64,000 bases of DNA from Patescibacteria group bacterium (GTDB lineage Bacteria > Patescibacteriota > Dojkabacteria > JAKAPS01). Position 1 is the first letter of the stretch. Each line of letters opens with the position of its first letter. The notes below the pieces were generated by a model. It had not been told where the DNA came from and made no database searches. It saw nothing but the letters and a program-made list of their open reading frames with translations. Position numbers and translations under genes: made by a program. This document shows, piece after piece, positions 1,002 to 53,755 of this stretch. The stretch covers positions 39,289 to 103,288 of the forward strand of contig JANWIC010000007.1 in NCBI GenBank assembly GCA_025450075.1. The letters are read 5' to 3'.

Positions 1002-1050
1002 AATGAATACTCAAATATATACATGCAGTGTAAATGAAGAAAGGTTACAC

Positions 1051-2657: not shown

Positions 2658-2680
2658 TGAGTATCTGATATAATGGAAGT

Positions 2681-4627: not shown

Positions 4628-4656
4628 TTGAAGAATACTCTTAATTCCTGTACAAT
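4628..4656 (+). promoter_or_regulatory. sigma70-like promoter (TTGAAG -17- TACAAT) for tyrS
   Basis: -35 at 4628-4633, 17-nt spacer, -10 at 4651-4656, ~24 nt before the ATG. Confidence 0.4.
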
Positions 4657-4679
4657 AAGCCTCGTATTATATATATATT

Positions 4680-5798: not shown

Positions 5799-5812
5799 GT
5801 GCCTTACACTAA

Positions 5813-9789: not shown

Positions 9790-9790
9790 A

Positions 9791-10675
9791 TTACATTTGG
9801 CTCATATATATTGTGTTCCCGTTTGACATATATTTTGCAACAATCGAATTAAACAGGTTCTTGTTTGGTTGGGAGAATTCTTTTCCTTGGTTATTTGTAC
9901 TTGGCTCTACAAGTTTGTTATACCCATTCGTATCTAACATGTTAGCTGATTGATTAATTGATTGTACCCATTGAGAATATTCCTTATTCGATGTCGCTTT
10001 CACTGTAAAATTCATTCCTGAAAATCCTTCACCACTCATTTCAGCTGCACCACCAGGATAGTCTCCGGGTTTATTTGCCATGAGATGTATCTGAGTAACC
10101 ATTCCTGTCATTGCATAAATTTGACCTCCAAGGCTTGGGATCCAGAATGAATTCATCGGTGCATTATCTGCCGTAAGTTGGAAATCTATTGGAGTATTTG
10201 CAGGTATTTCTAAATAGTTAACTGTTGCTATATTTTCCTGGGGATATATGAAAAGCCATTTCCAACGAAGAGCAACAACCTCAATCTCAATAGGTTTTGA
10301 TTGAGCAATAATTGGGTTATATGGGTCATATGCATGTGCAGATTGCCAACCGATGATTGCCCACACAAAGATAATACATGCAGGAATACTCCACCATGCT
10401 GTTGTAAGCTTTTTACCTGCACTCCATTCAGGAGTATAGGCTTGGTTATTTCCTTCCTGATATCGAAATACAATAAATAATGTGAATAATATTAACGGGA
10501 TACCGATACAAAAAGCTAAAACAAGAGCCATGACAAGAAGTGTGCTTTGACCTTGTGCGACATATCCTTGAGGGTTAAGTAACTGGAGATTCCCGTTACG
10601 GGCAAGTATAACAAAAAGAGTTGCAATTGAAAGTGCATCAATAAGGAAGATAACGGTTTTTGCTTTATGTTTCAT
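9791..10675 (-). CDS. cyoA: quinol oxidase subunit II (CuA ligands lost)
   Basis: Subunit II fold with a cupredoxin C-terminal domain. The CuA site reads AEMSGEGFSGM (Cys->Ala/Ser, His->Phe), as in CyoA/QoxA quinol oxidases. Confidence 0.8.
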   Translation of the reverse strand: MKHKAKTVIFLIDALSIATLFVILARNGNLQLLNPQGYVAQGQSTLLVMALVLAFCIGIPLILFTLFIVFRYQEGNNQAYTPEWSAGKKLTTAWWSIPACIIFVWAIIGWQSAHAYDPYNPIIAQSKPIEIEVVALRWKWLFIYPQENIATVNYLEIPANTPIDFQLTADNAPMNSFWIPSLGGQIYAMTGMVTQIHLMANKPGDYPGGAAEMSGEGFSGMNFTVKATSNKEYSQWVQSINQSANMLDTNGYNKLVEPSTNNQGKEFSQPNKNLFNSIVAKYMSNGNTIYMSQM

Positions 10676-25620: not shown

Positions 25621-26045
25621 TGGTGGAGATGGGGGGAGTCGAACCCCCGTACAAGACAAAAGAACAGATATAGTACTACAAGCTTACTTAGCTTCGTTTT
25701 TTTACATTCAGATCCTCAAAGCTAAGAAAAAAGATCATGAAAGGATATAATTAAGTACATATCAAGTTGCTATATCAGACAGCATGACATATACCTGACT
25801 GTTTTTTTGCCCTACTATTCCCATCAGGCGAGGTTTAGTAAAACACCAGCGATCTAATTTAGATATATGCTGGAGTATAAGCTGGAGCTCTGAAGAAATT
25901 AACTACAGAAGCTACTGTTGCCTGTACTTTTTGACTGAATGTGTTTGCATTTATGTCATTGGTACGTTTTTTTACGAAGTTATTACCATAATCTTCGGCT
26001 TGCTATATAAGCCCTATTTACCCTGGCGAAACCAAATACATCCCC
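25621..26045 (-). ncRNA. ssrA: tmRNA (ssrA)
   Basis: 5' GGGGATGTATTTGGTTTCGCCAGGG (cf. conserved GGGG...GGAUUCGACGGG). 3' GGGGGTTCGACTCCCCC-CATCTCC-A-CCA. The acceptor has a G3:U70 (Ala identity) pair and an encoded CCA. A candidate tag ORF starts GCA AAC (A N...). Confidence 0.75.
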
Positions 26046-27810: not shown

Positions 27811-30800
27811 ATGGCCAATCCAAATACAGTATCCGATAAAGCAAAGAAAAAGTCAAAGGTAGGAGTGAAGCAAGCAGAGGGACATACATTACGAGTGGAT
27901 ATATCAAAATCCCATCTCGACATGCCGATACCAAATCTAGTAGAGGCGCAACTTCGATCATACAATGAATTTTTAGATAAAACTTTGATTGAAGTATTCA
28001 AAGAAATTTCACCTGTAGATGATAATACAGGAAAATTGTGGACTCTTGAGTTCATGAATGCAAGACTTGGAGATACTAATAGGATGCCTGTTGAAGCAAT
28101 GAGCAAAGGTTTATCATATGATGCTCCATTATTTTTCACTGCACGACTTATTAACAAGCATACCGGTGAAATTAAGGAACAAGAATTGTTCATTTGCGAT
28201 CTCCCTCTTATGACAAACAGAGGGACTTTCATTATTAATGGAAATGAAAGAGCAGTTGTTCATCAGATCATCCGATCAGAAGGTGTACTTTTTATTGAAT
28301 CAGGAGAAAAAAGTGAAGCGGGTCCTTTGTATCTTGCCAAACTTATCCCTGAACGGGGAGCTTGGTTTAACTTTGAATTGAACAAGCATGATGTTATATC
28401 TATCAAACTTGCTCCAAAACGCCCAAAAATTCCTATTACTGAACTCCTTCGGGTTCTGGGTTATTCTACAAACCAGGAAATATTGTCACTCTTTAGTGAT
28501 GTTGACAGAAACCCTGACCGAAAGTTCATTGAATCAACTCTGTTAAAAGATCCGACTACAACAAAAGAAGAAGCTGTAATGGATATTTACAAAAAGCTTC
28601 GACCTGATGTAGCAACAACATATGATAATGCAAAAGCATTCATAGATAATATCTTTTTTAATGAAAGAAGAGTATATCTTGGAAAAACTGGACGATATCA
28701 ACTGAACAGAAAATTAGGAATTGACACTCCAGTTAGCTCAGAAAACTTTGTTTTGTATCCAAGTGATATTGTAGCTGTCATTAAGAGATTAATTGAAGTA
28801 AACAACGGAGACAAGCTTCCGGATGATATGGACAGTATGGAGAACCGAAGAGTAAAAAGCGTCGGAGAACTCGTAGCTGACTTTATCCGGGTTGGTGTCA
28901 GAAGAGTCGAAAAAAATATTAAAGACAGAATGAGTATCCATGCATCAGATGAGCTTTTAGTTCCTGCAACACTAGTTAGTACAAGACCTATTGCTGCGGC
29001 ATTAAATGAGTTTTTTGGTTCATCTGAAGTATCTAGATATATGGACCAGGAAAATGTCTTATCAGAACTTGGAAACAAGAGAAGACTGACATCAGGCGGT
29101 CCTGGTGGACTTACAAAAGAACGTGCAACGTTCTCAGTTCGAGATACCCATTATTCACAATACGGCAGGCTTTGCCCTATTGAGACTCCTGAAGGAGCAA
29201 ACATTGGTATTGTTAACCATCTTGCAGTTTATGCAAGAATTAATGAATATGGATTTTTAGAGACCCCTTACCGAAAAGTAATTACCTCATTCAACTTCCA
29301 AGAATTAAAGAAAGATCATAGCACAGATGAAATTGTTGCTATGATGCAAAACAGGATAAGCAGAGAAGATGTGGAGCATGATGGAAAAACCGTTATCTCT
29401 GCAGGAGAATATGTAAAATCAAAAGCACAAGCACAAGAAATTATGAAAGCTGTAGAAGCCTTCAACATCAAGCCATATGTAACAGATGATATTACCTACC
29501 TGAATGCAGGTGAGGAATATAATGTGAATATTACTTCAGCTAGTGTTGAGCGAGATGAATATGCAAACGTTGTCGCTGATCTCGTTCCTATCCGTTATAG
29601 AGGATCATTCAATATTGGATCAACTGAACATTTGCGATATATTGATGCAGCATCTATCCAAATTGCTGGAACAGGATTTGCATTAGTGCCATTTGCAGCA
29701 TCTGATGAGTCACAACGAACTCTTATGGCTGCAAACATGCAACGACAAGCAATTCCATTGATAAATCCTGAATCACCAATTGTAGGAACAGGATTTGAAG
29801 AAGTTGTAGCAAGAAATTCAGGAAGAGCAGTTTATGCTCCTGAAGATTGTCTCGTTGAATACGCAGATGCACAACGGGTTGTTATCAAATTAAAAGATGC
29901 AAAAGGAAAGAATACAAAACAGGAATTCAAGTTAGAGAAATTTGTTGGAACTAACCAGAATACTTCATTCTCACAAAAAGTACTTGTTAAGACCAACCAG
30001 GAAATCAAAAAAGGAGAAATTCTCATTGACGGACCTTGTATGGACAACGGTGAACTTGCTTTGGGAAAGAATATTACTGTTGCATATATGCTCTGGGAAG
30101 GATTCAACTACGAAGACGGAATTGTCATATCAGAAAGATTAGTTAAGGATGATATCCTTACCTCAATCCATGTAACTGAATACTCTCAAGAAATCAGAGA
30201 GACCCGTCTTGGAGATGAACTATTAACGTATGATATCCCTGGTGTAAGTGAACATGCACTTCGAAACCTTGACCAGAACGGAATTGTCCGAATCGGAGCT
30301 GAGGTAAAAGCAGGAGATGTTCTTGCAGGTATTATTGCACCAAAAGGAGAAACAGAATTAACTGCAGAAGAAAGACTTCTTCGTGCCATATTCGGAGAAT
30401 ATGCACGTGATGTCCGAGACAACTCACTCAAAGTTCCAAACGGAGAAGTAGGTATCGTTACAAACGTACAAGTCCTTTCAAAAGAAGCTGGTGATAAGTT
30501 ATCACCTGGCGTATTAAAAGTAGTAAAAGTATGGGTTGCAAAAACTCGAAAGATTACTATTGGAGATAAGCTTGCAGGACGACATGGAGATAAAGGAGTC
30601 ATTTCAAAGATATTACCGGTAGAAGATATGCCATATATGGCAGATGGAACTCCTGTTGATATCATCCTTTCCCCATTAGGCTTGACTAAACGTATGAACA
30701 TGGGACAGCTTCTTGAAACGCATCTTGGATTACGGGCACAAAAGCTTGGAGTAAAATTTGGTGTACCGATCTTTTCAAAGGTTGATACTGACAGATTAGA

Positions 30801-31395
30801 CAAGATGCTTAATGATGCAGGAATAGAAGTAAATAATAAAGTAACATTATATGACGGACGAACGGGAAAGCCATTTGCTGATAAGATTACGGTAGGACCT
30901 CGATATATTTTGAAGTTGAACCATTTGGCAGATGAAAAGATCCATGCTCGTGCAACTGGTGCTTACACTATGGTTACACAACAGCCACTCGGTGGAAAAG
31001 CGCAATTCGGAGGACAGAGGTTTGGAGAAATGGAAGTATGGGCATTGGAAGCTTATGGAGCAGGTGCAGTATTGCAAGAAATGCTAACAATCAAATCTGA
31101 TGATGTGATTGGCCGAGCAGAAGCATACAAAGCGATTATCCATGGGAAACCGGTACCAGTACCAGGTATTCCTGAAGGTTTTAAAGTGTTAATGAGTGAA
31201 CTTCGTGCTCTGGGATTAAACCTTGAAACAATCGAAGCAATCAGTAAACCGCAAACGAATGTAGAAATTGAAATGACGGAAGATACGAATGTGACCCCGG
31301 ATGAAGGAGTCATTGATGAAAACCTTGAACCTGTTAATGATATTCGTGTTGATGTAGCAACCGGCTCGGTTGAAGAACTTGAACGGTTAGCATAA
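27811..31395 (+). CDS. rpoB: DNA-directed RNA polymerase subunit beta
   Basis: 1194 aa; N-terminal EAQLRSYNEFL; GDKLAGRHGDKGV; NMQRQAIPL. Confidence 0.97.
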   Translation: MANPNTVSDKAKKKSKVGVKQAEGHTLRVDISKSHLDMPIPNLVEAQLRSYNEFLDKTLIEVFKEISPVDDNTGKLWTLEFMNARLGDTNRMPVEAMSKGLSYDAPLFFTARLINKHTGEIKEQELFICDLPLMTNRGTFIINGNERAVVHQIIRSEGVLFIESGEKSEAGPLYLAKLIPERGAWFNFELNKHDVISIKLAPKRPKIPITELLRVLGYSTNQEILSLFSDVDRNPDRKFIESTLLKDPTTTKEEAVMDIYKKLRPDVATTYDNAKAFIDNIFFNERRVYLGKTGRYQLNRKLGIDTPVSSENFVLYPSDIVAVIKRLIEVNNGDKLPDDMDSMENRRVKSVGELVADFIRVGVRRVEKNIKDRMSIHASDELLVPATLVSTRPIAAALNEFFGSSEVSRYMDQENVLSELGNKRRLTSGGPGGLTKERATFSVRDTHYSQYGRLCPIETPEGANIGIVNHLAVYARINEYGFLETPYRKVITSFNFQELKKDHSTDEIVAMMQNRISREDVEHDGKTVISAGEYVKSKAQAQEIMKAVEAFNIKPYVTDDITYLNAGEEYNVNITSASVERDEYANVVADLVPIRYRGSFNIGSTEHLRYIDAASIQIAGTGFALVPFAASDESQRTLMAANMQRQAIPLINPESPIVGTGFEEVVARNSGRAVYAPEDCLVEYADAQRVVIKLKDAKGKNTKQEFKLEKFVGTNQNTSFSQKVLVKTNQEIKKGEILIDGPCMDNGELALGKNITVAYMLWEGFNYEDGIVISERLVKDDILTSIHVTEYSQEIRETRLGDELLTYDIPGVSEHALRNLDQNGIVRIGAEVKAGDVLAGIIAPKGETELTAEERLLRAIFGEYARDVRDNSLKVPNGEVGIVTNVQVLSKEAGDKLSPGVLKVVKVWVAKTRKITIGDKLAGRHGDKGVISKILPVEDMPYMADGTPVDIILSPLGLTKRMNMGQLLETHLGLRAQKLGVKFGVPIFSKVDTDRLDKMLNDAGIEVNNKVTLYDGRTGKPFADKITVGPRYILKLNHLADEKIHARATGAYTMVTQQPLGGKAQFGGQRFGEMEVWALEAYGAGAVLQEMLTIKSDDVIGRAEAYKAIIHGKPVPVPGIPEGFKVLMSELRALGLNLETIEAISKPQTNVEIEMTEDTNVTPDEGVIDENLEPVNDIRVDVATGSVEELERLA

Positions 31396-31415
31396 TATAT
31401 TATATACCTACACCA

Positions 31416-34400
31416 ATGATTAAAGATTTTAAAGCACTTAAAATAACACTAGCATCTCCACAGCAAGTGCAAAGCTGGAGCCATGGTGAAGTGAAGAAAG
31501 CTGAAACAATAAACTACAGGACACAACGAGCAGAAGTTGACGGTCTAATGTGCGAAAGAATTTTCGGACCAACTAAAAACTTTGAATGTTACTGTGGAAA
31601 GTATAAGAAGGTACGATATAAGGGGATTATCTGTGACAAATGTGGAGTAGAAGTCACACAAAAAAGTGTCAGACGAGAACGAATGGGACATATTAAATTA
31701 GTCTCACCTGTTGTCCATGTCTGGTATTCCCACGGTGTACCAAACAAGCTCTCACTTCTTCTTGATATTATGCAAAAGAAGTTGACTGCTGTTATCTATT
31801 TCTCACGTTACATGGTAATTGATGTAATCGAAGAAGAGAAAAAAGCAGCAATCGCTCAAATTAATGATAAGTTGGAACTTGCAAAGAAAGAAAACAGCGA
31901 TGAATTAGAACTTCATATAGCCGAAATCAATAAAGAAAAAGATGAGGCAGTAGAAAAGACAAGAAGAGAATCAGATGAAAGTGGTGAAGTTCTCGATATG
32001 ACTATAGATAAAGTAGAAGTAAAATTCAGACAAAGGATTGCAAAACTTCGAGAAGAATATCTTGTAAAAGAAAATGAAATCGAAGCTGAATACAAGACAC
32101 TACTTGGTTTAGTTGATAAAATTGTAATCGGAGAAATCGTCTCAGAAGATGAATATTACCGATTGCTGGATAATGACTTGGAATTCTTTGAATTATCAAT
32201 GGGTGCTGAGGCAATTAAGACATTGTTACAAAAGCTTGATCTGGAAAAACTATCGGAAGAGCTGAAAAAAGATGTTCTTAGCCCATCAGTTCAAAAGAGA
32301 ATCAAAGCAATCCAACGACTCCGCATTATTGAAGGATTCAAGAACAACAAGATAGACCCATCATGGATCGTCATAGATATTGTTCCTGTTATCTCACCTG
32401 AACTACGTCCAATCATCCAACTTATGGGAGGCAGATTTGCTTCATCAGACTTGAATGACTTATACCGAAGAGTGATAAACAGAAACAACCGTTTGAAAAG
32501 ACTTATGGAACTTGGAGCACCTGAAATTATCCTTCGAAACGAAAAGAGAATGTTGCAAGAAGCAGTGGATGCTTTAATTGACAATAACCACAGACCAAGC
32601 GCACCTGTTATGAACACAAGAAAGATGCCATTGAAATCACTTTCTGATAACCTTCGAGGAAAACAGGGGCGATTCAGACAGAATCTGCTTGGAAAACGTG
32701 TTGACTACTCAGGTCGTGCCGTTATTGTTTCCGGAGCAGACCTTAGCCTTACAGAAGCAGGTCTTCCAAAGACAATGGCACTTGAGCTGTTCAGACCGTT
32801 TGTCATGAAAGAAATTTTAGAACGAGAATATGCGCCAAATATTAAGAGTGCAAAGTATTTCTTTGAAAAAGCAAGCAAGGAAGTATGGGATATCTTAGAA
32901 GAAGTAATCCAAAAAAGACCTATCCTATTAAACCGTGCACCTACTCTTCACAAACAGGGTATACAGGCATTTTATCCGGTACTTTCATCAGGAAATGCAA
33001 TCAGAATTAATCCTCTCGTATGTGCAGGATTTAATGCTGACTTCGATGGTGACCAGATGGCTGTCCATGTACCGTTATCTGAAGAAGCAGTAGAAGAGGC
33101 AAAAACACTTATGATGGCAAAGAATAACTTGCTATTGGATGCTGACGGCGGAGCTATCATGAACCCGAAATATGATATGGTTTATGGTTGTTACTTCTTA
33201 ACAGGAGTAGATACACATCTAGAAGCATCAAAGAGTGTATTTGCATCAGCAGATGATGCAGTTACAGCATTCCATAATGATGCATTAGCACTTCGACAGC
33301 TTACTAAGATCAGAGTTAACGGCAAAATTTTGGAGACAACGGTTGGAAGAATCATCTTCAATGAAATCCTTCCAAAAGACTTTAATTTTGTTAACTATCA
33401 GGTAGGCAGCGATGAAATTAAAAAGATTGTAGAAGAATTAATTGCAAAAGAAGGAATGGAAAGTTCTGTTGCTCTTCTTGATAGCATCAAAAATATCGGT
33501 TTTAAGTATGCAACGCTTTCAGGCTTCTCTATATCAATGGATGATTGTAAGATCATACCTGAGAGAGATGACATTATTAACGAAGCTGACCAAAAAGTTG
33601 CAGGACTTGAAGATAACTACCAGATGGGACTTATAACCAAAGGTGAAAAGAGCCGATTGGCACTTGTTATCTGGAAAGAAACTACAGACAGGATTGCACA
33701 ATTGACATGGGATAACTTAGGAGAAGAAAACCCGATCAGACAAGTAATCAAAGCAAAAGCTATGAAAGCAAATATTGACCAGGTGAAGCAGATTGCAGGT
33801 ATGCGAGGATTATTACTTGATCCAAATAACAAGACAATCGAACTTCCAGTCAGGTCTAACTTTGCACTAGGACTTTCTGAAATGGAATACTTTGTAGGTT
33901 CACGATCAACAAGAAAAGTGTTGGCTGATACTGCACTTCGAACTGCTGAATCAGGTTACCTGACTCGAAAACTTGTTGATGTTGCACAAGGTGTTATCGT
34001 CAGAGAAGAAGATTGTGGAACAATTGAAGGAATTGAAATGCTCAAGAATGATGACAGAAGAATTCCTTTTGTTGAGAGGATTGAAGGACGATGGAGTGCA
34101 CAGGAAGTGAAAGATGGAAAGAAAATACTAGTTGGTGCAAGCGAATTTATTACAAAAGAAATAGCAGAAAAAATCAATGAAACAGGTATCGAGTCAATTG
34201 TACTCCGCTCCCCGCTTACATGTCGTGCAAAGTTTGGTATTTGTGTTAAGTGTTACGGAAATGATCTTTCAACAAAAGAACCGGTACGAATTGGTACTGC
34301 TGTTGGAGTCATCGCAGCACAATCTCTTGGAGAATCAACCACACAGCTTACTTTGAACACAAAGCATAAAGCAGGTATTGCAGGCGTAGTGGATGTAACG

Positions 34401-35267
34401 CAAGGTTTGCCTAGAGCTGAAGAATTGTTTGAAGCTCGAATTCCAAAAGGAGAAGCAAAGATTGCAGACATTGACGGAATAGTACATATCATTGAAGTTG
34501 AAGAAAAGTTAAAAGTAAGAATTACCAGTAACAAGAAGACTACTTATGAAGTGATTTCCCTTGTAGGAGGAAGTGTAAATGTAAAGAATGACCAGAAAGT
34601 GAAAGCTGGAGATCTTCTCTATGTTTCACCAGAAAAATCAAATGTCGTTTCTCCATTCAGAGGAACTGTGAAAATTGAAGGGGATAAGATTCTTGTTGAA
34701 AGCGACAAGGTTCAGGAAGTGGAATACACTATCCCTGCAGATGCAGAACTTCTCGTAAATGAAGGAGATGAAATAAAGGCAGGCTTTTTGATCACAAAAG
34801 GAAATATCGATCCAAGAATTCTTCTTGAAACAATCGGTATGGTGAAAGCGCAAAAGTATATTATTGATAACATTCAACAAACTTATGGTGCACAGGGAAT
34901 TGCAATTAACGACAAGCATGTTGAAGTAATTGTTTCTCAGATGGGACGATATGTCAGGGTTACAAACCCAGGAGATAGTTCACTCCTTCCTGGAGAATAC
35001 AAAGACAAGTTTGAAGTTGAGACAATGAATGAAGTATTGCAAAAAGGTGGAAAGAAGAATATTGCGGTGAAACCACAACTTATTGGTATAACTGCAGCAT
35101 CCCTCAGGACTGAAAGTTTCTTGTCAGCAGCTTCATTCCAGGAACAGGTTAGAGTTTTGTCTGATGCCGCTATCATCGGAAAGGTCGACTACTTGCGAGG
35201 ATTAAAAGAAAATGTTATTATTGGGCGTCGAATACCTAGCGGATCACGAGTTCGTTTGGAAGAGTAA
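31416..35267 (+). CDS. rpoC: DNA-directed RNA polymerase subunit beta' (single unsplit gene)
   Basis: 1283 aa; Zn-finger CYCGKYKK...CDKCGVEV; NADFDGDQMAVHVP catalytic motif. Confidence 0.97.
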   Translation: MIKDFKALKITLASPQQVQSWSHGEVKKAETINYRTQRAEVDGLMCERIFGPTKNFECYCGKYKKVRYKGIICDKCGVEVTQKSVRRERMGHIKLVSPVVHVWYSHGVPNKLSLLLDIMQKKLTAVIYFSRYMVIDVIEEEKKAAIAQINDKLELAKKENSDELELHIAEINKEKDEAVEKTRRESDESGEVLDMTIDKVEVKFRQRIAKLREEYLVKENEIEAEYKTLLGLVDKIVIGEIVSEDEYYRLLDNDLEFFELSMGAEAIKTLLQKLDLEKLSEELKKDVLSPSVQKRIKAIQRLRIIEGFKNNKIDPSWIVIDIVPVISPELRPIIQLMGGRFASSDLNDLYRRVINRNNRLKRLMELGAPEIILRNEKRMLQEAVDALIDNNHRPSAPVMNTRKMPLKSLSDNLRGKQGRFRQNLLGKRVDYSGRAVIVSGADLSLTEAGLPKTMALELFRPFVMKEILEREYAPNIKSAKYFFEKASKEVWDILEEVIQKRPILLNRAPTLHKQGIQAFYPVLSSGNAIRINPLVCAGFNADFDGDQMAVHVPLSEEAVEEAKTLMMAKNNLLLDADGGAIMNPKYDMVYGCYFLTGVDTHLEASKSVFASADDAVTAFHNDALALRQLTKIRVNGKILETTVGRIIFNEILPKDFNFVNYQVGSDEIKKIVEELIAKEGMESSVALLDSIKNIGFKYATLSGFSISMDDCKIIPERDDIINEADQKVAGLEDNYQMGLITKGEKSRLALVIWKETTDRIAQLTWDNLGEENPIRQVIKAKAMKANIDQVKQIAGMRGLLLDPNNKTIELPVRSNFALGLSEMEYFVGSRSTRKVLADTALRTAESGYLTRKLVDVAQGVIVREEDCGTIEGIEMLKNDDRRIPFVERIEGRWSAQEVKDGKKILVGASEFITKEIAEKINETGIESIVLRSPLTCRAKFGICVKCYGNDLSTKEPVRIGTAVGVIAAQSLGESTTQLTLNTKHKAGIAGVVDVTQGLPRAEELFEARIPKGEAKIADIDGIVHIIEVEEKLKVRITSNKKTTYEVISLVGGSVNVKNDQKVKAGDLLYVSPEKSNVVSPFRGTVKIEGDKILVESDKVQEVEYTIPADAELLVNEGDEIKAGFLITKGNIDPRILLETIGMVKAQKYIIDNIQQTYGAQGIAINDKHVEVIVSQMGRYVRVTNPGDSSLLPGEYKDKFEVETMNEVLQKGGKKNIAVKPQLIGITAASLRTESFLSAASFQEQVRVLSDAAIIGKVDYLRGLKENVIIGRRIPSGSRVRLEE

Positions 35268-35294: not shown

Positions 35295-35717
35295 ATGGCG
35301 AGAATATCACAATTGGTAAGAAAACCAAGAAAGGTAAAAGAAAAGAAGGTAAAATACAAAGCAATGACGAAGTCATTTAATAGCGTGAAGAATCGTTACG
35401 TTGACGTAAATAGTCCTCTTAAAAGAGGAGTATGTACCGTTGTTCGTACAATGACTCCTAGAAAACCAAACTCTGCACTTCGAAAGATTGCAAGGGTAAG
35501 GCTATCAAACAGAATGGAAGTCAACGCATATATTCCAGGAATCGGCCATGATCTGCAGGAACACTCTGTTGTTCTTATCAGAGCAGGTAAAGTAGCAGAT
35601 TTGCCATTGGTGAAGTACCATATTGTCCGAGGTAAATATGATGCAAAAGGCGTCACAAACAGAAAACAAGGCCGATCTTTGTACGGAACAAAGAAGCCAA
35701 AAGAAGAATCTAAATAA
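35295..35717 (+). CDS. rpsL: 30S ribosomal protein S12
   Basis: KPNSALRK and VRGG-like motifs; 140 aa. Confidence 0.95.
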
Positions 35718-35729: not shown

Positions 35730-36194
35730 ATGAGAGGAAAACAAGCAACAAAAAGAAAATTAGAACCTGATATGATATATCAAAGCGTTCTCGTAACCAG
35801 ATTCATTAATAAACTGATGATGAGCGGAAAGAAAAGTACAGCACGTGCTATCTTTTATAACGCAATGGATGTTATTAAGGAAGATAAGAAGCTCGATCCG
35901 ATGAAAGTATTTGAAACAGCACTAAGAAATGCAATGCCGCAAATGGAAGTGCGATCTCGACGAATCGGAGGAGCAAATTACCAGGTTCCAATCCCGGTAG
36001 ATGGCGGAAGACAGGAATCACTTGGTATTAAATGGATTATTGAGGCATCTCGTACAAAGAAAGGCCAGCAAATGTATAAAAAATTAGCTAGCGAACTTAT
36101 GGATGCAGCTAACAATACTGGAAATGCAGTAAGAAGAAAAGAAGATGTTCACAAAATGGCAGATGCTAACAAAGCTTTCAGTCATTTTAGATAA
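35730..36194 (+). CDS. rpsG: 30S ribosomal protein S7
   Basis: 154 aa; IINKLMMSGKKSTARAIFY signature. Confidence 0.95.
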   Translation: MRGKQATKRKLEPDMIYQSVLVTRFINKLMMSGKKSTARAIFYNAMDVIKEDKKLDPMKVFETALRNAMPQMEVRSRRIGGANYQVPIPVDGGRQESLGIKWIIEASRTKKGQQMYKKLASELMDAANNTGNAVRRKEDVHKMADANKAFSHFR

Positions 36195-36216: not shown

Positions 36217-38304
36217 ATGGCCCAGAAAATTTCATTAGACAAGATACGTAATATCGGTATCATTGCCCATATCGATGCCGGTAAAACAACCACAACAGAA
36301 AGAATCCTTTACTACACAGGAAAAATATATAAGATTGGTGAAGTGCATGAAGGTGCAGCAACTATGGACTGGATGGAACAAGAGAGAGAACGTGGAATTA
36401 CGATCACTTCTGCTGCAACAACAGCATTCTGGAATCTTGGAAATATTCAGTTTAGGGTAAATATTATTGATACACCGGGTCATGTAGACTTCACAGCTGA
36501 AGTTGAAAGATCTCTTCGTGTGCTAGATGGTGGTGTTGTTGTCTTCGATGGAAAAATGGGTGTTGAACCTCAGTCTGAAACTGTCTGGCGCCAGGCTGAT
36601 AAATATAACGTACCAAGAATCTGTTTTATCAATAAACTTGATGCAATTGGCGGTGACTTCTATATGTCATACGAATCAATTAAATCTCGACTTGGAGTGA
36701 ATGCTGTGCCAATTCAAATTCCTATCGGTATTGAAAATAATTTCAAAGGAATCATTGATTTGATTGCTATGAAAGCATATATGTATACAAATGATCTGGG
36801 GACTGATATTCAGGAAGTTGATATTCCGGAAGATTATAAAGAAAGAGCAAAAGAATACAGGACATATATGCTTGAAAAAGTTGCAGAAACATCTGATGAA
36901 CTCTTAGAAAAGTTTTTTGCTGGAGAATCATTTACTGAAGATGAAATCATAACTGGCCTTCGAAAAGGAACTTTGGACCAAACTATCTTTCCTGTTCTTG
37001 GAGGAGCTTCAAAAGCAAACAAAGGAGTACAACTTCTTTTGGATGCTGTTGTCAGATTCCTTCCATCTCCACTTGATATTGGTGCGGTTCATGGAACCGA
37101 TCCAAAAACAAGTGAAGAAATAACTCGAGACCCTGATGATAAAGAGCCATTTACTGCGCTTGCTTTTAAGATTGCTGTTGATGAACATGTTGGAAAACTT
37201 ACCTTTTTTAGAGTATATGCAGGAACTGTAAAAGAAGGTTCATATATACTAAACTCTACTACAGGTGAAAAAGAACGGGTTAGCAGAATAGTCATGATGC
37301 ATGCAAACCATCGTGAACAGGTTGCAGAAGTAACTGCAGGTGAAATTGCTGCTATGGTAGGATTAAAAGGCACTTCTACAGGAAATACACTTTGTGATGA
37401 GAATTCCCCGATTCTTCTTGAATCAATCAGCTTTCCAGAACCTGTTGTATCCGTTGCTGTCGAACCAAAAACCAAACAGGATCAGGAAAAAATGTCTACA
37501 GCTATTCATAAATTAGCGGAAGAAGATCCGACTTTCCGGGTAACTTCAGACCAGGAAACAGGTGAAACAATTATTTCAGGAATGGGAGAATTGCATCTTG
37601 ATATTATCGTTGATCGAATGAAACGTGAATACCACGTCGATGCAAATGTCGGAAAACCTCAGGTGGCATATAGGGAAACAATTACACAGGTAACACAGGT
37701 AGAAGGAAAATATATTAAACAAAGTGGAGGTCATGGACAATATGGCCACTGTTGGTTACGACTTGAGCCTCAAGAAAGAGGAAAAGGATATGAATTTGTA
37801 GATGAAGTAAAAGGAGGAGCGATTCCAAAAGAATTTATCCCTGCTATTAACAAAGGTATTGAACAATCGCTCCAAAATGGAGTACTTGGAGGTTATCCTG
37901 TTGTAGATGTAAAGGTTGCAGTATATGATGGATCTTATCATGACGTTGACTCTTCTGAACTTGCTTTTAAAGTAGCAGGATCTATGGCTTTCCGAGAAGG
38001 AATGAAAAAAGCGGATCCAGTACTTTTAGAACCAATCATGTATATTGAAGTTGTTACCCCTGCAGAATTCATGGGTGATATTACCGGTGCTTTGTCAGCA
38101 AAACGAGGTATTATACTTGGTATGGATGATCGGGGCAATGCAAAAGTAATTCGAGCAGAAGTCCCGCTTGAGAATATGTTCGGGTTTACCAATGAACTCC
38201 GATCCATGTCATCAGGACGTGCGTCCAACTCAATGGAATTCTCACATTACCAGCCTGTTCCTAAGAATGTAGCTGATGAGATATTAGGAAAACAGGAGAA
38301 GTAA
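36217..38304 (+). CDS. fusA: elongation factor G
   Basis: [23 protein letters not shown] and NKLD; 695 aa. Confidence 0.97.
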
Positions 38305-38305
38305 T

Positions 38306-38782
38306 ATGGGTCAAGAACGTGAAAGTTCTGCCCCAGATGATGTCTTACCTCCTATAACCTCACCGGATGAAGTTATATTAAACTTATACCTTTACTTCGG
38401 GTTTGAAGATGTTTACCCATTCTCATATATAAAGTCACGAATTGCAAATTATCGACCATATTTTGATTCTTGGAAAATGGCAATCCTTGAGAAAGATTCC
38501 AATGCTTCCGAAATTGATATTGATTATACAATAGCCCTTAAATGTTGCTTAATGTTAAGTGATATCTTTAAGGTAGAAGTAATGAGATGTCCTGATTATG
38601 AAAGAACTAAGAACGAACTATGGGTAATAAGCGATCCAAAAGATACCTTGGGTTTAGGACAATTTCATCTACTTACCTTTAAATTTTGGGGACAATTAGG
38701 AATAGTCCATCTAATGCAAGATAATAGAAATGATCTCGATGATGAAGTGATTATAGTTTTAGACAGAGACTCATTGAACTAA
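38306..38782 (+). CDS. hypothetical protein (158 aa) inserted between fusA and tuf
   Basis: Its ATG overlaps the fusA stop (TAATATG). No recognisable family. Confidence 0.5.
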   Translation: MGQERESSAPDDVLPPITSPDEVILNLYLYFGFEDVYPFSYIKSRIANYRPYFDSWKMAILEKDSNASEIDIDYTIALKCCLMLSDIFKVEVMRCPDYERTKNELWVISDPKDTLGLGQFHLLTFKFWGQLGIVHLMQDNRNDLDDEVIIVLDRDSLN

Positions 38783-38922
38783 TTTTTTATATGCCTAGTA
38801 ATGGCTAATCTATAGTTCTTTTAGGCGATCCTAATAATTGTAAGAAAGATTACGGACTCAACGATATATATACCCTCAAAACCCTTTACAAATGTTTTTA
38901 TCTATGGTATAAATACCACGGT

Positions 38923-38968
38923 ATTGTGAATGAAAAAATTTCACAATGTTTTGAGTGTGTGCTATAAT
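38923..38968 (+). promoter_or_regulatory. tuf promoter (TTCACA -17- TGcTATAAT, extended -10) with a perfect 8-bp inverted repeat ATTGTGAA-N9-TTCACAAT overlapping the -35
   Basis: -35 at 38940-38945 and -10 at 38963-38968 with TG at 38960-38961. Palindrome arms are 38923-38930 and 38940-38947. Confidence 0.45.
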
Positions 38969-39007
38969 GAACCCGCTCAGTCAAATTTTATATTACTTAC
39001 TACACAA

Positions 39008-40210
39008 ATGGCAACTTTCGACAGAAGCAAACCACACAAGAATGTAGGTACTATTGGTCACGTAGATCATGGTAAGACTACTCTTACAGCAGCAATTTTA
39101 AAAGTTCTTGCAGCAGCAGGTCATGCAGCACAAACAAAAGGAGTACAGGATCTTGATAAAGCTCCTGAATCCCGAAGTCGTGGTATTACTATTGCTACGG
39201 CTCATACAGAATATGAGACAGACAAGTTTCACTACGCACATGTAGACTGTCCTGGTCACGCTGACTATATTAAGAACATGATTACCGGTGCTGCTCAAAT
39301 GGATGGAGCTATCCTCGTTGTTGCAGCTACTGATGGACCTATGCCTCAAACACGAGAGCATATTTTGCTTTCCCGACAGGTAGGAGTTCCAAAAATTGTT
39401 GTATTTATGAACAAGGTTGATATGGTAGAAGATGCAGAGTTATTGGATCTTGTTGAACTTGAAATACGTGAAGTACTTTCCCGATACGAATTCCCAGGAG
39501 ATGATACTCCTGTAATTCGAGGCTCAGCTCTAAAGGCTTTAGAATGTGCTTGCGGAAAAAGAGATTGTGAATGGTGCGGAAAAATCTTGGAACTTATGGA
39601 TCAAGTCGATGATTATATCCCAGTACCAGAACGAGCAATTACTAAACCATTCTTGATGCCTGTTGAAGACGTTTTCTCAATTGAAGGACGTGGAACTGTA
39701 GCAACAGGAAGAGTTGAACGAGGAGAAGTAAAGGTAAACGAAGAAGTGGAACTGGTTGGAATTGTAAAAGATGCAAAAAAACTTGTCGTAACCGGTGTAC
39801 AGATGTTCAACAAAGATTTGGACAAAGGTATGGCAGGAGATAACATTGGAGTACTTCTCCGTGGTATTAAAAGAGAAGAAGTAGAACGAGGACAAGTTCT
39901 TGCAAAACCAGGAAGCATTACTCCTCATACAGATTTTGAAGCAGAAGTATACGTTTTAACTAAAGAAGAAGGTGGACGACATACTCCTTTCTTGAAAGGA
40001 TACAGACCACAATTCTATCTAAGAACTACTGATGTTACTGGAGAAGTCACCTCACTTCCCGATGGAGTTGAAATGGTGATGCCAGGAGACAATACCAAAG
40101 TAACAGTATCACTCGTTACTCCGGTAGCTATGGAAGATGGACTAAGATTTGCAATTCGTGAAGGTGGAAGAACAGTAGGAGCAGGAGTTGTAACTAAGAT
40201 TTTGAAGTAA
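39008..40210 (+). CDS. tuf: elongation factor Tu (with a 5-aa Cys-rich insertion)
   Basis: [26 protein letters not shown]. Full-length alignment to EF-Tu. Unusual [20 protein letters not shown] where E. coli has ALEGDAEWEAKILEL. Confidence 0.95.
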
Positions 40211-40278: not shown

Positions 40279-40584
40279 ATGGCATTAAATCGCATAAGAG
40301 TAAAATTAAAAGGATATGATTCAAAAGTTGTCGACAAATCGGCAGCTCAGATTCTTGAAGCCGCGATGAGGACCGGTGCTAAGGCATCCGGACCTGTACC
40401 GTTGCCAACCCGGCTGAAGAAATATAGCGTTAACGAGTCTCCACATGTACACAAAAGATCTATGGAGCAATTTGAAATACGGGTTCACAAGAGACTTATT
40501 GATATTCTAGACCCGACTTCAAAAACGATTGATTCCCTGACACATTTGCAATTACCTGCAGGTGTAGGAATCGAGATAAAGTAA
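40279..40584 (+). CDS. rpsJ: 30S ribosomal protein S10
   Basis: IRVKLKGYD...[11 protein letters not shown]. Confidence 0.95.
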
Positions 40585-45348: not shown

Positions 45349-45720
45349 ATGGTACAGTCACAAACAATATTAAAATGCGCAGATAACACAGGAGCAAAAG
45401 AACTTCTTGTTATTGGAGTAAGAGTCGGTTCTAACCATGAGTTTGCATCAGTTGGTGATATTGTCAGCTGCAGCGTAAAAAAAGCTCAGGCAGGCGGAAG
45501 CGTAAAGACTCATGAAAAAGTAAAGGCAGTGGTTGTTAGGACAAGAAAAGAAGTACGAAGACAAGACGGATCCTATATCCGATTTGACGATAATGCAGCA
45601 GTAATTATTGACCCTAAATCAAAAGAACCAAAAGGAACTGCAGTATTTGGCCCTGTTGCACGAGAGCTTCGGGATAGAGGATATATGAAGCTTATTAGTT
45701 TAGCTCCAGAAGTATTATGA
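45349..45720 (+). CDS. rplN: 50S ribosomal protein L14
   Basis: [19 protein letters not shown]. Confidence 0.95.
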
Positions 45721-46004
45721 AACTGAGAAAAAACGATAAAATAAAAATAGTACGTGGAAAAGACAAAGGGAAAGAGTCAGTGATTGAACGGGTTTTGCCT
45801 AAAAGCGGCAAAATATATGCAAAAGATATCAATATCGTTAAAAAACATGCAAAGGGGAGAGGTATTATCGACCTTATCAAGCCGGTTCAGGCTTCAAATG
45901 TTATGGTAATCTGTCCGAATTGCAATAAACCAACAAGAGTAGGATATAAAGTTGAAAAAGAGAAAAAAACCAGATTTTGTAAACAATGTCAAAAAGACTT
46001 CTAA
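45717..46004 (+). CDS. rplX: 50S ribosomal protein L24 (KOW) with a C-terminal C4 zinc-ribbon-like motif
   Basis: [14 protein letters not shown] (KOW), then CPNC...CKQC at the C-terminus where other L24 proteins have no Cys. Confidence 0.88.
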
Positions 46005-46774
46005 ATACGGACAATTTTGATGTCATTGGCGGAAGAAACCTGGTACAAGAAGCGCTGAAAGCAGGAAATGATGTAAAAAGGATATATATTGAAAATGCAA
46101 TAAAAGAATCGAAAAACTATGGCAATGATGCTAGAATTCATGATATAATCAGCATTGCCAGATCAAGGAATATTCCTGTTGAGTATATCTCAAGGGATGA
46201 TATCCGATTACTTGAAAAAGATGAAGGAGTAAGAACAGAAGGAGTAGCAGCATTCCTGCCACAACGAGTAGAGCTTACTGTTTCAGATATCTTTGCACTT
46301 TGTAAACAGAAAAATAAGGAACCTTTTATCATACTGGTAAATAATATCTTGTATGAGGAGAATCTTGGAGCAATACTTCGCACATGCGCTGCAGGTGGTG
46401 TTGATGCTCTCATTATTCCAAAACGGGATAACCGTTCCCTTACTCCAAATGTGAGGCGAATCTCAATGGGAGGAAGTGAATATGTACCATTAGTACGTTC
46501 AAATCTTTTTGAAGCACTTGATGAGATACATGATGAAGGAATTCAGATTATCGGTGTTGAACTAAATGGTTCAGCATACTACTATGATGCGAATCTTAGC
46601 GGCCCGATTGCAATTATCTTAGGTGGTGAAGATGCTGGTCTTACAGCTCCATTACAAAAGCGATGCGATCAGGTGGTGAAGATTCCTATGATAGGAATGA
46701 TCCAGTCACTGAATGTATCAGTAAGTACTGCGATTTTAATATATGAGAAAATACGACAGGAATGTCAAAATTAA
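45986..46774 (+). CDS. SpoU/TrmH-family RNA 2'-O-methyltransferase inserted between rplX and rplE
   Basis: LGAILRTCAAGGVDALIIP and a SPOUT C-terminal domain. Overlaps both flanking r-protein genes. Confidence 0.8.
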   Translation: MSKRLLNTDNFDVIGGRNLVQEALKAGNDVKRIYIENAIKESKNYGNDARIHDIISIARSRNIPVEYISRDDIRLLEKDEGVRTEGVAAFLPQRVELTVSDIFALCKQKNKEPFIILVNNILYEENLGAILRTCAAGGVDALIIPKRDNRSLTPNVRRISMGGSEYVPLVRSNLFEALDEIHDEGIQIIGVELNGSAYYYDANLSGPIAIILGGEDAGLTAPLQKRCDQVVKIPMIGMIQSLNVSVSTAILIYEKIRQECQN

Positions 46775-47304
46775 GAGAAAAATATAACAAAGAAATACAA
46801 CAGAAATTAATGAAAGAATTGCAGCTTTCAAATGTCCATTCTGTACCGGCACTTAAGAAAATTGTGCTTAATATTGGTGCAGGAGAGGCAGTTGCAAATC
46901 CAAAGGTTGTTGAGATTACACAAGAAATTCTGAGCGCAATAACTGGCCAACGTGCAGTTATTACAAAAGCAAAGAAGTCTATCTCAAACTTTAAGATTCG
47001 TGAAGGTTTGGCAATTGGATCAATGGTTACCCTACGTGGTGATAAGATGTGGGATTTTTACGAAAAACTTATTGATATTGTAATCCCTCGTATCAAGGAC
47101 TTTCGGGGATTGAACCCGTTCGCATTTGATAATGCAGGAAACTATACATTAGGAATAAAAGATCATACAATCTTTCCAGAGATTGATCCAAATGAAATTG
47201 ATAAGGTACGAAGTCTTGAAATAACTTTTGTAACAAGCGTAAATGATAAGGAAGCTTCAAAAAAACTTCTTCGTGAGTTAGGTCTTCCACTTAAGAAAGA
47301 ATAA
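46762..47304 (+). CDS. rplE: 50S ribosomal protein L5
   Basis: 180 aa; NVHSVPALKKIVLNIGAGEA. Confidence 0.95.
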   Translation: MSKLREKYNKEIQQKLMKELQLSNVHSVPALKKIVLNIGAGEAVANPKVVEITQEILSAITGQRAVITKAKKSISNFKIREGLAIGSMVTLRGDKMWDFYEKLIDIVIPRIKDFRGLNPFAFDNAGNYTLGIKDHTIFPEIDPNEIDKVRSLEITFVTSVNDKEASKKLLRELGLPLKKE

Positions 47305-47925: not shown

Positions 47926-48489
47926 ATGTCACGTATAGGAAAACAACCAGTTACAATTCCATCAGGCGTAGAAGTTATGGTTGATGAAGCAATGATTCGT
48001 GTAAAAGGACCTAAAGGTGAATTGAGCATTGTACGTCCTCCATTGGTAACAATCGAGCAGGATGCAAATGAAGTAAGAGTTTCAATTCCTGAAGACAAAA
48101 AAGGAGATAGGATCTACAAATCATATTATGGACTTACCAGAAGCTTGATTAATAATCTGGTATTAGGTGTAACACAAGGATATAAGAAAGAATTGGAGAT
48201 GAAAGGAATTGGTTATCGTGCAGCAATGCAAGGAAATAACCTTGTTCTAAATGTAGGATACTCACACCAAGTGAATATTCCACAAGAAGAAGGGATCACT
48301 TTTAATGTAGTAGATAATGTTAATATCACAGTTGAAGGGATTGATAAACAACGGGTTGGTCAGGTAGCTGCAAATATTCGAAAAGTACGAGAACCGGAAC
48401 CATATAAAGGGAAGGGAATAAGATATAAAGATGAAATTGTACGAAGGAAGAGTGGAAAGAGCGGAAAAGGTGCAAAAGGAGCTAAATAA
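47926..48489 (+). CDS. rplF: 50S ribosomal protein L6
   Basis: MSRIGKQPVTIPSGV. Start moved to the ATG at 47926, after the rpsH stop. Confidence 0.93.
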   Translation: MSRIGKQPVTIPSGVEVMVDEAMIRVKGPKGELSIVRPPLVTIEQDANEVRVSIPEDKKGDRIYKSYYGLTRSLINNLVLGVTQGYKKELEMKGIGYRAAMQGNNLVLNVGYSHQVNIPQEEGITFNVVDNVNITVEGIDKQRVGQVAANIRKVREPEPYKGKGIRYKDEIVRRKSGKSGKGAKGAK

Positions 48490-48510
48490 TATATTATAGT
48501 TTTTACAGCA

Positions 48511-48873: not shown

Positions 48874-49383
48874 ATGGCAGAAGAAAAAACTAATCAAAGG
48901 ATTAACACAAAAGATGACAGAAAAGGTGCTCCAAGAGCTGGTGCAGAAGATGGATTTGACCAGATTGCTGTTGAAACAAGAAGAGTGACAAAAGTAACAA
49001 AAGGTGCAAAGCGATTCAGATTCAGTTCTGTCGTTGTAGTCGGAAATAGATCTGGCAAAGTAGGTATTGGAATTGGAAAAGGCGGAGACCCAAAACAGGC
49101 TATAGAAAAGGCAGCAAAATATGCTAAGACGCACTTATTTGATGTAACATTAAAAGGAACGACAATTCCTCATATTATTGAAACTGATTATGGTGCTTCA
49201 AAGGTATTATTAAAACCAGCTGCACAAGGTACAGGAATTATTGCAGGAAGCAGCGTTCGAGCAGTTGTTGAACTTGCAGGTATAAAAGATATCCGTGGAA
49301 AAATTATTGGCAGTAACAATAAAGTAAATAATGTGTACTGTACATTAAAAGCACTTACACTACTTAGGGATAAAAGAATATAA
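48874..49383 (+). CDS. rpsE: 30S ribosomal protein S5
   Basis: VTKVTKGAKRFRFSSVVVVGN...GKVGIGIGKG. Confidence 0.95.
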   Translation: MAEEKTNQRINTKDDRKGAPRAGAEDGFDQIAVETRRVTKVTKGAKRFRFSSVVVVGNRSGKVGIGIGKGGDPKQAIEKAAKYAKTHLFDVTLKGTTIPHIIETDYGASKVLLKPAAQGTGIIAGSSVRAVVELAGIKDIRGKIIGSNNKVNNVYCTLKALTLLRDKRI

Positions 49384-49384
49384 T

Positions 49385-49822
49385 ATGGAACTACACTCTC
49401 TCAAAAAAATTACAGATAAAAAGAAAAAAGTTGTCGGACGCGGATACGGATCTGGAAAAGGTGGACATACTTCAGGAAGAGGATCAAAAGGACAAAATGC
49501 AAGAGCAGGCGGAAAATTACGTCCACTATTTGAAGGAGGACAAAATCCATTAAGTATGCGAATTCCACACAAACGTGGATTTAAAAGAGCATTTAAAGAA
49601 AATAGTGAAATTGTAAAGCTAGACAGCCTTAACATGTTTGAAGACGGAAATACCGTTAGCCCGGCAGAATTGTTCAAAACAGGCCTTATCACAGGGAACG
49701 GAACTCCAAAGATATTGGATCACGGAACTCTTACAAAAAAAATTAATCTTATCGGTGTGATGTGTTCCAAATCTGCAAAAGAAAAAATTGAAAAGCAGGG
49801 AGGAAGCGTATCATGGAAATAA
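49385..49822 (+). CDS. rplO: 50S ribosomal protein L15 (follows S5 directly; no L30 gene)
   Basis: GRGYGSGKGGHTSGRGSKGQNARAG. Only 1 nt separates it from the rpsE stop. Confidence 0.95.
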   Translation: MELHSLKKITDKKKKVVGRGYGSGKGGHTSGRGSKGQNARAGGKLRPLFEGGQNPLSMRIPHKRGFKRAFKENSEIVKLDSLNMFEDGNTVSPAELFKTGLITGNGTPKILDHGTLTKKINLIGVMCSKSAKEKIEKQGGSVSWK

Positions 49823-52757: not shown

Positions 52758-52874
52758 ATGAAAATTAAAGCTTCTATAAAAAAACGATGCACGGGTTGTT
52801 ACCTGGTAAAACGGGAAGGTGTTTTGTATATCTATTGCAAAACAAACCCCAAACATAAGCAAAGACAAGGATAA
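52758..52874 (+). CDS. rpmJ: 50S ribosomal protein L36 (38 aa; not in the ORF track)
   Basis: Manual translation gives [38 protein letters not shown], with the C-x2-C-x12-C-x4-H zinc motif. It starts 4 nt after infA. Confidence 0.85.
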
Positions 52875-52892
52875 TATATTACATCTTAACTA

Positions 52893-53305: not shown

Positions 53306-53737
53306 ATGGCTAAGAAAAAGGACGAAAAAAAGGCTGCAAAGAAAATTGTAAAAAAGACAAAGCCGGTAAAAGCAAAGAAGATTAAAGAAATGGTGACAAA
53401 GGGGAATGCATATATCTATTCCACTTTTAACAATACTGTTGTTACCTTAACGGATGAATCAGGAAAAGTTTTAAGTGCAAGCAGCGGTGGTGTTGTTGGG
53501 TTTAAGGGAACTAGGAAATCTACACCTTATGCTGCATCACGTGCATCTGAAGATGCTGTAAATAAATCATTAAAATACGGATTAAAAGAAGTTGATGTTT
53601 TTGTCAAAGGTCCAGGACCGGGAAGACAAATGGCTGTAAAAGCCATCCGAAGTGCCGGACTGAAGGTCACTTCATTAACTGATGTTACTCCTATCCCACA
53701 TAATGGGTGCAGGCCAAAAAAGAGGCCGAGAAAATAA
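53306..53737 (+). CDS. rpsK: 30S ribosomal protein S11
   Basis: [12 protein letters not shown]...[12 protein letters not shown]. Confidence 0.95.
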
Positions 53738-53755
53738 TATATTATTTGTTATACA

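Follow-up and report, generated by a model that had tools for sequence, protein, structure and literature searches.

A probable lineage-specific orphan gene in a variable slot between fusA and the tuf promoter of a Patescibacteria bacterium

Introduction

The canonical bacterial str operon, as found in Escherichia coli and Salmonella, has the gene order rpsL-rpsG-fusA-tufA (PMC6735719). The stretch of DNA analysed here, 64,000 nucleotides (nt) from a Patescibacteria group bacterium (GenBank assembly GCA_025450075.1, contig JANWIC010000007.1, positions 39,289 to 103,288; hereafter the window), resembles that operon in keeping the order rpoB-rpoC-rpsL-rpsG-fusA-...-tuf-rpsJ-rplC, but differs from it in having an extra cistron and about 90 nt of unique DNA between the stop codon of fusA, the gene for elongation factor G (EF-G), and the promoter of tuf, the gene for EF-Tu. 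The extra cistron is an open reading frame (ORF) of 158 codons, referred to below as ORF158. The locus raises the question of whether this frame is a gene and, if so, whether its position immediately after fusA means that its product is a partner of EF-G. An earlier note, made from the sequence alone, had taken the second view and proposed a lineage-specific translation-associated factor. The results described below instead make it probable that ORF158 is a genuine protein-coding gene, specific to its species or lineage, in a slot of rapidly changing content that lies between the fusA stop codon and a conserved tuf promoter block.

Results and Discussion

ORF158 has the properties of a coding sequence

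The frame lies on the forward strand at the coordinates that the earlier note had given (Table 1). The interval between fusA and tuf is 703 nt long and, at a GC content of 33%, rich in stop codons. When it was simulated 20,000 times as a first-order Markov sequence, with all six frames considered, no ORF of 158 codons or more arose; the longest simulated frame had a mean length of 53 codons and a maximum of 151. The GC content at the first, second and third codon positions of ORF158 (0.46/0.30/0.26) has the pattern seen in the confidently assigned genes of the window (0.52/0.37/0.25), and the spacer that follows it is flat by position (0.29/0.29/0.32). A codon-usage model trained on genes of the window gave ORF158 a log-likelihood of 0.091 per codon, compared with 0.067 for rpsJ, 0.039 for rplX and 0.03-0.17 for other window genes that lack a Pfam match, whereas the other two frames of ORF158 scored about -0.78. 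In a control for this frame-based score antisense ORFs were also positive, and random open frames of identical composition were therefore used as the null instead; the score of ORF158 stood above these with z=4.1, and none of 5,000 reached it. Judging from composition and codon usage, we conclude that ORF158 is a real coding sequence with native composition, or was one until very recently. Its product is predicted to be a soluble, acidic protein (isoelectric point (pI) 4.4, 28 Asp/Glu against 15 Lys/Arg, three cysteines), with no hydrophobic segment of transmembrane strength and, by eye, no obvious signal-peptide character at the N-terminus.

ORF158 has no detectable homolog

The earlier note had recognised no motif in the protein, and this was borne out by searches of Pfam and NCBIfam (E<=10), PHROGs and PADLOC, none of which gave a match. 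Only the query itself was returned by a word-index search of about 5.8 billion protein clusters and by a full phmmer search of 1.84 billion representatives; ORF158 is a strict singleton among about 15 billion predicted proteins. No match was obtained by tblastn against phage and plasmid records, and none in JGI metagenome and IMG/VR contigs, which were scanned with a back-translated pattern followed by tblastn confirmation. The sequences of the PDB gave nothing better than E>=0.84, and no translation-factor or EF-G-binding family was matched in Pfam, NCBIfam or the PDB sequences. An AlphaFold2 (AF2) model built from the single sequence, with no alignment, had a predicted local distance difference test (pLDDT) score of 47, and a Foldseek search of the PDB with this low-confidence model gave only matches with E>=0.19 and template modelling (TM) scores <=0.27. 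No Rfam RNA family was found in the slot or the spacer. The description of ORF158 as an orphan situated between fusA and tuf thus stands. Nine of the 30 window genes tested (about 30%) are without a Pfam match, and in having neither homolog nor domain ORF158 is like the taxonomically restricted orphans of the Candidate Phyla Radiation (CPR) and uncultivated taxa. It is unlike other orphan genes in that its position next to fusA is occupied by unrelated orphans in sister lineages.

Unrelated genes follow fusA in close relatives

Contigs of relatives were recovered from the protein collection using EF-G as a handle, and the EF-G of the window was found to be 82-86% identical to that of the closest of them. 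In L081 (EF-G 86% identical) a 352-amino-acid (aa) ORFan begins 3 nt after the fusA stop codon and is followed by an ORFan of at least 140 aa. L082 (84%; positions 1-7258, together with a JGI contig) has genes without a Pfam match encoding 259, 217, 332, 164 and 165 aa, the first of them 5 nt after the stop codon, and then tuf. L083 and L084 (82%) have an ORFan of at least 102 aa that begins 12 nt after the stop codon, and in L085 (83%) fusA is followed by an intrinsic-terminator hairpin, as it is in L086 (73%). In L087 (72%) a 63-aa ORF and then efp come after fusA, in L089 (GCA_021809565.1; 71%) a MazE-like antitoxin and PIN-domain toxin pair (6198-6825) and then efp, and in L088 (70%) tuf begins 100 nt after fusA. 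L087 is a sister contig of L089, and it has only the 63-aa ORF at the toxin-antitoxin position.

ORF158 showed no similarity to the ORFans in these slots in all-against-all blastp and phmmer comparisons, an hhalign comparison with the profile of slot ORFans o164, o165 and o332 gave nothing, and tblastn and blastn found neither remnants of ORF158 in the DNA of the relatives nor any of their ORFans in the window. The only kinship among the slot ORFans was that of the paralogs o164 and o165 (E ~1e-7), whose profile retrieved no other protein from the 5.8 billion clusters, and the slot ORFan of each relative is a database singleton. The AF2 model of o164/o165 (pLDDT 52, predicted TM score 0.58) consists of a helix, six strands and a helix, with no match in the PDB. 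By eye, o332 of L082 may be a tandem copy of the o164/o165 domain, a resemblance that is not significant. All slot ORFans have host-like GC content, GC that falls from the first to the third codon position and a pI of 4.2-5.5, and some of the proteins, again by eye from the translations, apparently have hydrophobic, membrane-like segments. An acidic N-terminus was considered as a shared feature of the slot ORFans and was rejected as not distinctive, several other window genes being similar.

At the DNA level, blastn homology between the window and L081-L084 ends at about 38301, at the end of fusA, and that with L082 restarts at 38875; the variable segment between these points (Table 1) corresponds to about 3.85 kb in L082. 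Conserved flanks therefore enclose non-homologous content in close relatives, with differences among L081, L082, L083 and L085, and no relative has an orthologue of ORF158 at the same position, as would be expected for a member of the str operon. Going by these comparisons, the content of the slot in the sub-clade of the window is replaced on a short evolutionary scale. Flexible genomic islets or hotspots have the same combination of conserved flanks and content unrelated between lineages, and one relative carries a toxin-antitoxin pair at the junction. Unlike such islets, the slot was found to have no mobility genes, tRNA target or repeats, and its content is host-like, co-oriented and closely packed, in an operon that is essential and strongly expressed. 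Multigene insertions between translation-machinery operons are known from Proteobacteria (Brandis et al. 2019, PMC6735719). There too conserved colinear translation operons are interrupted by a lineage-specific insertion and co-orientation is kept, but the insertion in the window lies inside the classical str unit, 1 nt from the preceding gene, and its content varies among relatives with EF-G 82-86% identical.

The assemblies of L083, L084, L085 and L086 break in or just after the slot downstream of fusA, and also near the rpoC/rpsL boundary, which would fit strain-level variability and, equally, low coverage. In bacteria rpsL and rpsG are almost always adjacent. Six Pfam-less genes of 81-123 aa separate them in the 84% relative, according to the gene table of its JGI contig (sample 3300050821).

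A broader sample comprised 80 GTDB loci, seven of them named as Patescibacteria. The premise of the earlier note, that tuf normally follows fusA directly, was sound for most bacteria, the gap being 42-259 nt in 49 of 51 other loci with a downstream tuf (nearly all non-Patescibacteria), but it failed for every one of the seven Patescibacteria-named loci: in four the gap is 556-2386 nt and accommodates additional genes, and in the other three no tuf lies closer than 4 kb. Interruption of the fusA-tuf junction is thus a common condition in Patescibacteria. Elsewhere in the Patescibacteria (L002:6192-6437, L007:4052-4456 and L008:7929-8297) tuf is immediately preceded by a gene for a small acidic protein. 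The N-terminus of this protein is Phd/YefM-like, with E values (1e-6 to 1e-3) that miss the Pfam threshold, and the C-terminus ends in a conserved ...(F)YLEPVE tail. A neighbouring toxin gene was not seen; L007, although labelled Gammaproteobacteria, has the Patescibacteria-like arrangement. Like it, ORF158 encodes a small acidic protein and stands as an additional gene between fusA and tuf, but the Phd/YefM-like family has a recognisable, if sub-threshold, domain, is conserved across classes and shows no similarity to ORF158.

Several points weigh against the reading of ORF158 as a genuine gene in a turnover slot. Its GC content (34%) lies between that of coding sequence (39-41%) and that of the spacer (30%), and its codon scores are at the low end of those of real genes. 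Purifying selection could not be seen at the protein level, since no homolog was found, even in relatives with EF-G 82-86% identical. There are only five close-relative contigs, three of which end inside or just after the slot, so that turnover is inferred from few lineages, and neither flanking repeats nor mobility genes were found that would explain how the content is exchanged. The same GC content and codon scores favour the best surviving alternative, that ORF158 is non-functional, either the decaying remnant of an inserted gene or an open frame that is neither expressed nor selected. Its singleton status and the pLDDT of 47 point the same way, as does the Shine-Dalgarno-like AGGAG ahead of its start, which probably arises from the fusA codons themselves, such signals not being used by this organism. 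We nevertheless regard this alternative as rather unlikely. The failure of AF2 on a single sequence says nothing, no frame of this length arose in the simulations at 33% GC, and both the codon-position pattern and the codon usage are gene-like, with the other two frames strongly negative. In addition, ORF158 starts exactly at the fusA stop codon, and the slots of relatives hold long ORFs that are clearly coding.

A conserved promoter block precedes tuf

The true start of tuf is the ATG at 39008, the start at 38930 reported by the ORF finder being a mere upstream extension, and the spacer between ORF158 and tuf (38783-39007) has exactly the 225 bp stated in the earlier note. A tuf promoter and a palindromic, operator-like site had also been proposed there; promoter-like elements and a palindrome are indeed present, in a block that is conserved in L082. 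By blastn, the window and L082 are 75.5% identical over the 188 nt that begin at 38875 and extend into the beginning of tuf, the window EF-Tu being 95.7% identical to the first 93 aa of the L082 EF-Tu, and the core of the block, CTTTACAAAT...TATGrTATAAA, is also present in L088. When the block was used as a DNA pattern to collect further members of the clade from metagenome contigs, no match was obtained.

Two putative promoters, P1 and P2, the latter about 40 nt ahead of the tuf ATG, have sigma-70-type hexamers at 17-nt spacing that are conserved in relatives (Table 1), in a region where the number of promoter-like matches (4, against 4.4 in shuffles) is not above chance. The core of the palindrome, TGTGAA/TTCACA, is kept in L082 with a loop 1 nt shorter. 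The TGTGA and TCACA half-sites are 11 nt apart in the window and 10 nt apart in L082, whereas a CRP operator has the form TGTGA-N6-TCACA; a CRP/FNR-type operator was consequently rejected, the spacing being neither canonical nor conserved. As RNA the palindrome would form a weak hairpin (-7.6 kcal/mol, z=-1.7), and hairpin z values ranged from -1.0 to -1.7, not beyond shuffles. No terminator-like site was detected after ORF158, so that read-through into tuf is possible. Internal promoters serve tufA in the str operon of E. coli and Salmonella, and tuf of the window resembles it in having promoter-like elements of its own together with possible read-through.

In L088 the -35 hexamer of P1 begins 5 nt past the fusA stop codon, which indicates that the ancestral order was fusA stop codon, tuf promoter, tuf. 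On this comparison the variable segment is inserted exactly between the fusA stop codon and the tuf promoter.

Close spacing to fusA says little about partnership with EF-G

The earlier note had described an ATG overlapping the fusA stop codon. This was incorrect: the junction reads ...GAG AAG TAA T ATG GGT..., with a gap of 1 nt that puts ORF158 into the +1 frame of fusA. On the same strand and this close together, the two genes have the arrangement of a translationally coupled pair, and PMC10666635 puts a stop-start gap of 1 nt within the range of reinitiation, with coupling lost by about 20 nt. Termination and reinitiation at TAA-T-ATG would suit an organism without Shine-Dalgarno (SD) enrichment. 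SD-like tetramers precede seven of 51 start codons in the window, a background level of 14%, and the leaders of tuf, fusA and most ribosomal protein genes are AT-rich and have no SD. This fits what PMC9297842 reports, namely that part of the CPR has no anti-SD. Pentamers of the AGGAG type have a background of 2.7% in the window, and the AGGAG in the last fusA codons is probably a by-product of these codons and not a ribosome-binding site, given the lack of SD enrichment.

That ORF158 is a lineage-specific translation-associated factor, a partner or modulator of EF-G whose synthesis is tied stoichiometrically to that of EF-G by coupling, would accord with the 1-nt gap, with the location inside the str operon and with the tight spacing of the ORFs that follow fusA in relatives (3, 5 and 12 nt); PMC10666635 also reports that subunits of complexes are over-represented among close or overlapping gene pairs. 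However, gaps of 3 nt or less separate 17 of the 34 neighbouring pairs of the cluster in the window. Such spacing is the default in this compact genome, and the 1-nt gap therefore says little about partnership with EF-G, contrary to the weight that had been placed on it. EF-G is highly conserved, so that a co-evolving partner should be traceable, but no homolog was found at this position or elsewhere in relatives whose EF-G is 82-86% identical. The earlier note itself had named the absence of a homolog at this position from every related genome as the finding that would tell against its proposal, and the relatives hold unrelated ORFans of varying size and number, a terminator (L085, L086) or a directly adjacent tuf. 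Together with the lack of a match to translation-factor or EF-G-binding families in Pfam or NCBIfam, this leaves partnership with EF-G improbable.

Possible origin and role of ORF158

A different source of rapid turnover would be a mobile or selfish element with the 3' end of fusA as its target and ORF158 as its cargo (toxin-antitoxin, defence or anti-defence, or phage-derived). The MazE-PIN pair directly after fusA in L089, the Phd/YefM-like small genes just upstream of tuf in L002, L007 and L008, and turnover as fast as that of defence islands are in keeping with such an origin. We consider it unlikely, as PADLOC, PHROGs, phage, plasmid and viral contig searches were all negative, ORF158 is a lone gene with neither a family match nor a partner, the locus has neither an integrase or transposase gene nor flanking direct repeats, and its composition is host-like and not foreign.

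Highly improbable is a programmed +1 frameshift at AAG-UAA that would fuse ORF158 to EF-G as an extended isoform: a one-base skip at the stop codon would read ...K-N-M-G-Q..., and the +1 frame and the AGGAG immediately upstream, in an SD-poor genome, recall the prfB (release factor 2) site, but the P-site AAG cannot re-pair in the +1 frame (AGU), the SD-to-shift spacing is 0 nt as against 3 nt in prfB, ORF158 has its own ATG exactly at the junction, and with respect to fusA the ORFans of relatives lie in frames 0, +2 and 0, which gives no consistent recoding frame.

We thus return to the reading of ORF158 as a genuine gene in a turnover slot. On this reading the rpsL-rpsG-fusA message would carry it as its last cistron, and ribosomes terminating at the fusA UAA would restart at the AUG 1 nt downstream to make a soluble, acidic protein of about 18 kDa. 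The tuf gene would be driven by its own tandem sigma-70-type promoters, possibly with read-through. Its expression would then be independent of what the slot contains, which would explain why the slot tolerates rapid gain and loss of genes. The role of the protein may be niche-specific, in conflict or interaction with a host or phage, or it may be a selfish passenger, rather than a part of core translation; this is the least secure step of the scheme, and we hold it with low confidence. The behaviour of the slot and the toxin-antitoxin pair of L089 point to an accessory or conflict role, but the sequence of ORF158 itself does not: it bears no sign of such a role, PADLOC and PHROGs being negative, which also counts against our reading.

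A bolder version makes the 3' end of fusA (and the rpsL-rpsG junction of one lineage) an 'expression dock' or gene nursery of this Patescibacteria sub-clade, where new ORFs would time and again be captured or born, coupled at once to the translation of EF-G and replaced within genus-level divergence. ORF158 would then be a young, fast-evolving product, which might modulate translation or host/phage interaction while diversifying, with its dosage tied to EF-G. We give this version only a slender chance.

ORF158 is best read as an orphan accessory gene in a flexible slot, which is a known kind of gene; that the slot lies inside the str operon, with probable coupling to fusA, is modestly unusual. 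If this is true, ORF158 brings nothing new on translation and simply adds to the unexplained orphans of an uncultured Patescibacteria lineage. The interest is positional, in that a conserved, essential and highly expressed operon tolerates orphan turnover directly after fusA, apparently because tuf keeps its own conserved promoter. The fusA-tuf junction would accordingly be a natural place to seek highly expressed lineage-specific proteins in episymbiotic bacteria, and the locus cautions that operon membership is a poor guide to function in compact CPR genomes.

Table 1. Positions of genes and sequence elements in the window.
Feature	Position	Strand	Remarks
rpoB	27811-31395	+	colinear transcription/translation cluster of the window
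rpoC	31416-35267	+	same cluster as rpoB and rpsL
rpsL	35295-35717	+	upstream of rpsG
rpsG	35730-36194	+	upstream of fusA
fusA (EF-G, 695 aa)	36217-38304	+	all EF-G Pfam domains; stop codon TAA 38302-38304
AGGAG, SD-like pentamer	38294-38298	+	within the closing Q-E-K codons of fusA; ORF158 ATG 7 nt further on
Junction TAA-T-ATG	38302-38308	+	TAA 38302-38304, T 38305, ATG 38306-38308; likely termination-reinitiation site
Variable segment	38305-38874	+	no counterpart in relatives (blastn); lies between the fusA stop codon and the tuf promoter block
ORF158 (158 aa, orphan)	38306-38782	+	coding signals; no homolog
AT-rich spacer after ORF158	38783-38874	+	not conserved in comparison with relatives
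Conserved tuf promoter/leader block	38875-39007	+	about 130 bp; blastn against L082
P1, promoter-like	38885-38913	+	TTTACA-17-TATAAA; identical spacing in L082 and L088
Palindrome ATTGTGAA-N9-TTCACAAT	38923-38947	+	arms 38923-38930 and 38940-38947; right arm is the P2 -35
P2, promoter-like	38940-38968	+	TTCACA-17-TGcTATAAT, extended -10; 11/12 positions and TG; kept in L082
tuf (EF-Tu, 400 aa)	39008-40210	+	Pfam GTP_EFTU, D2 and D3 domains all present
EF-Tu residues 179-191	39542-39580		four-cysteine motif
rpsJ	40279-40584	+	followed by S10/spc/alpha genes
rplX	45717-46004
SpoU-family gene	45986-46774	+	between rplX and rplE
rplE	46762-47304
rpsE	48874-49383		abuts rplO
rplO	49385-49822
ATAATATATTAT, four matches	31392-31403, 48486-48497, 52871-52882, 53734-53745	+	upstream of rpoC, rplR and the genes at 52893 and 53756
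Crp-family helix-turn-helix gene	194-649
Cytochrome b-like gene	1215-2657	+
Haem-copper oxidase operon	6889-10675	-	COX2, COX1, COX3, COX4
tmRNA gene	25621-26045	-

Other features of the window

The EF-G of the window is at most 63% identical to those of the GTDB species representatives retrieved, the best being from Magasanikbacteria, Uhrbacteria and a 'Patescibacteria group', and its best named protein matches (66-71%) are from Patescibacteria and Saccharimonadales. rpsE abuts rplO and leaves no room for rpmD (uL30). Loss of uL30 is called a CPR hallmark in PMC9297842, and the absence of rpmD from this place is consistent with a CPR/Patescibacteria origin.

A second insertion in a conserved ribosomal operon was seen in the spc genes, where a gene for a SpoU-family rRNA 2'-O-methyltransferase, whose function is translation-related, is wedged between rplX and rplE and overlaps them by 13-19 nt. 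The four-cysteine motif of EF-Tu (CxC...CxxC) is also found in L088 (ECGCGKRDCQWCG), at a position where E. coli EF-Tu has EGDAEWEAK; a metal-binding knuckle is one possibility.

The palindromic motif ATAATATATTAT has four matches, against 1.2 expected, each on the coding strand and at a fixed distance (22-25 nt) ahead of a start codon. It could act as an internal promoter with very short leaders or else as a non-SD initiation signal. The gene for transfer-messenger RNA (tmRNA) has an unusually long predicted tag peptide, ANTFSQKVQATVASVVNFFRAPAYTPAYI. Finally, the window has a haem-copper quinol/cytochrome oxidase operon, a cytochrome b-like gene and a Crp-family helix-turn-helix gene, the oxidase operon and the cytochrome b-like gene being found in a genome that otherwise resembles a reduced member of the Patescibacteria.

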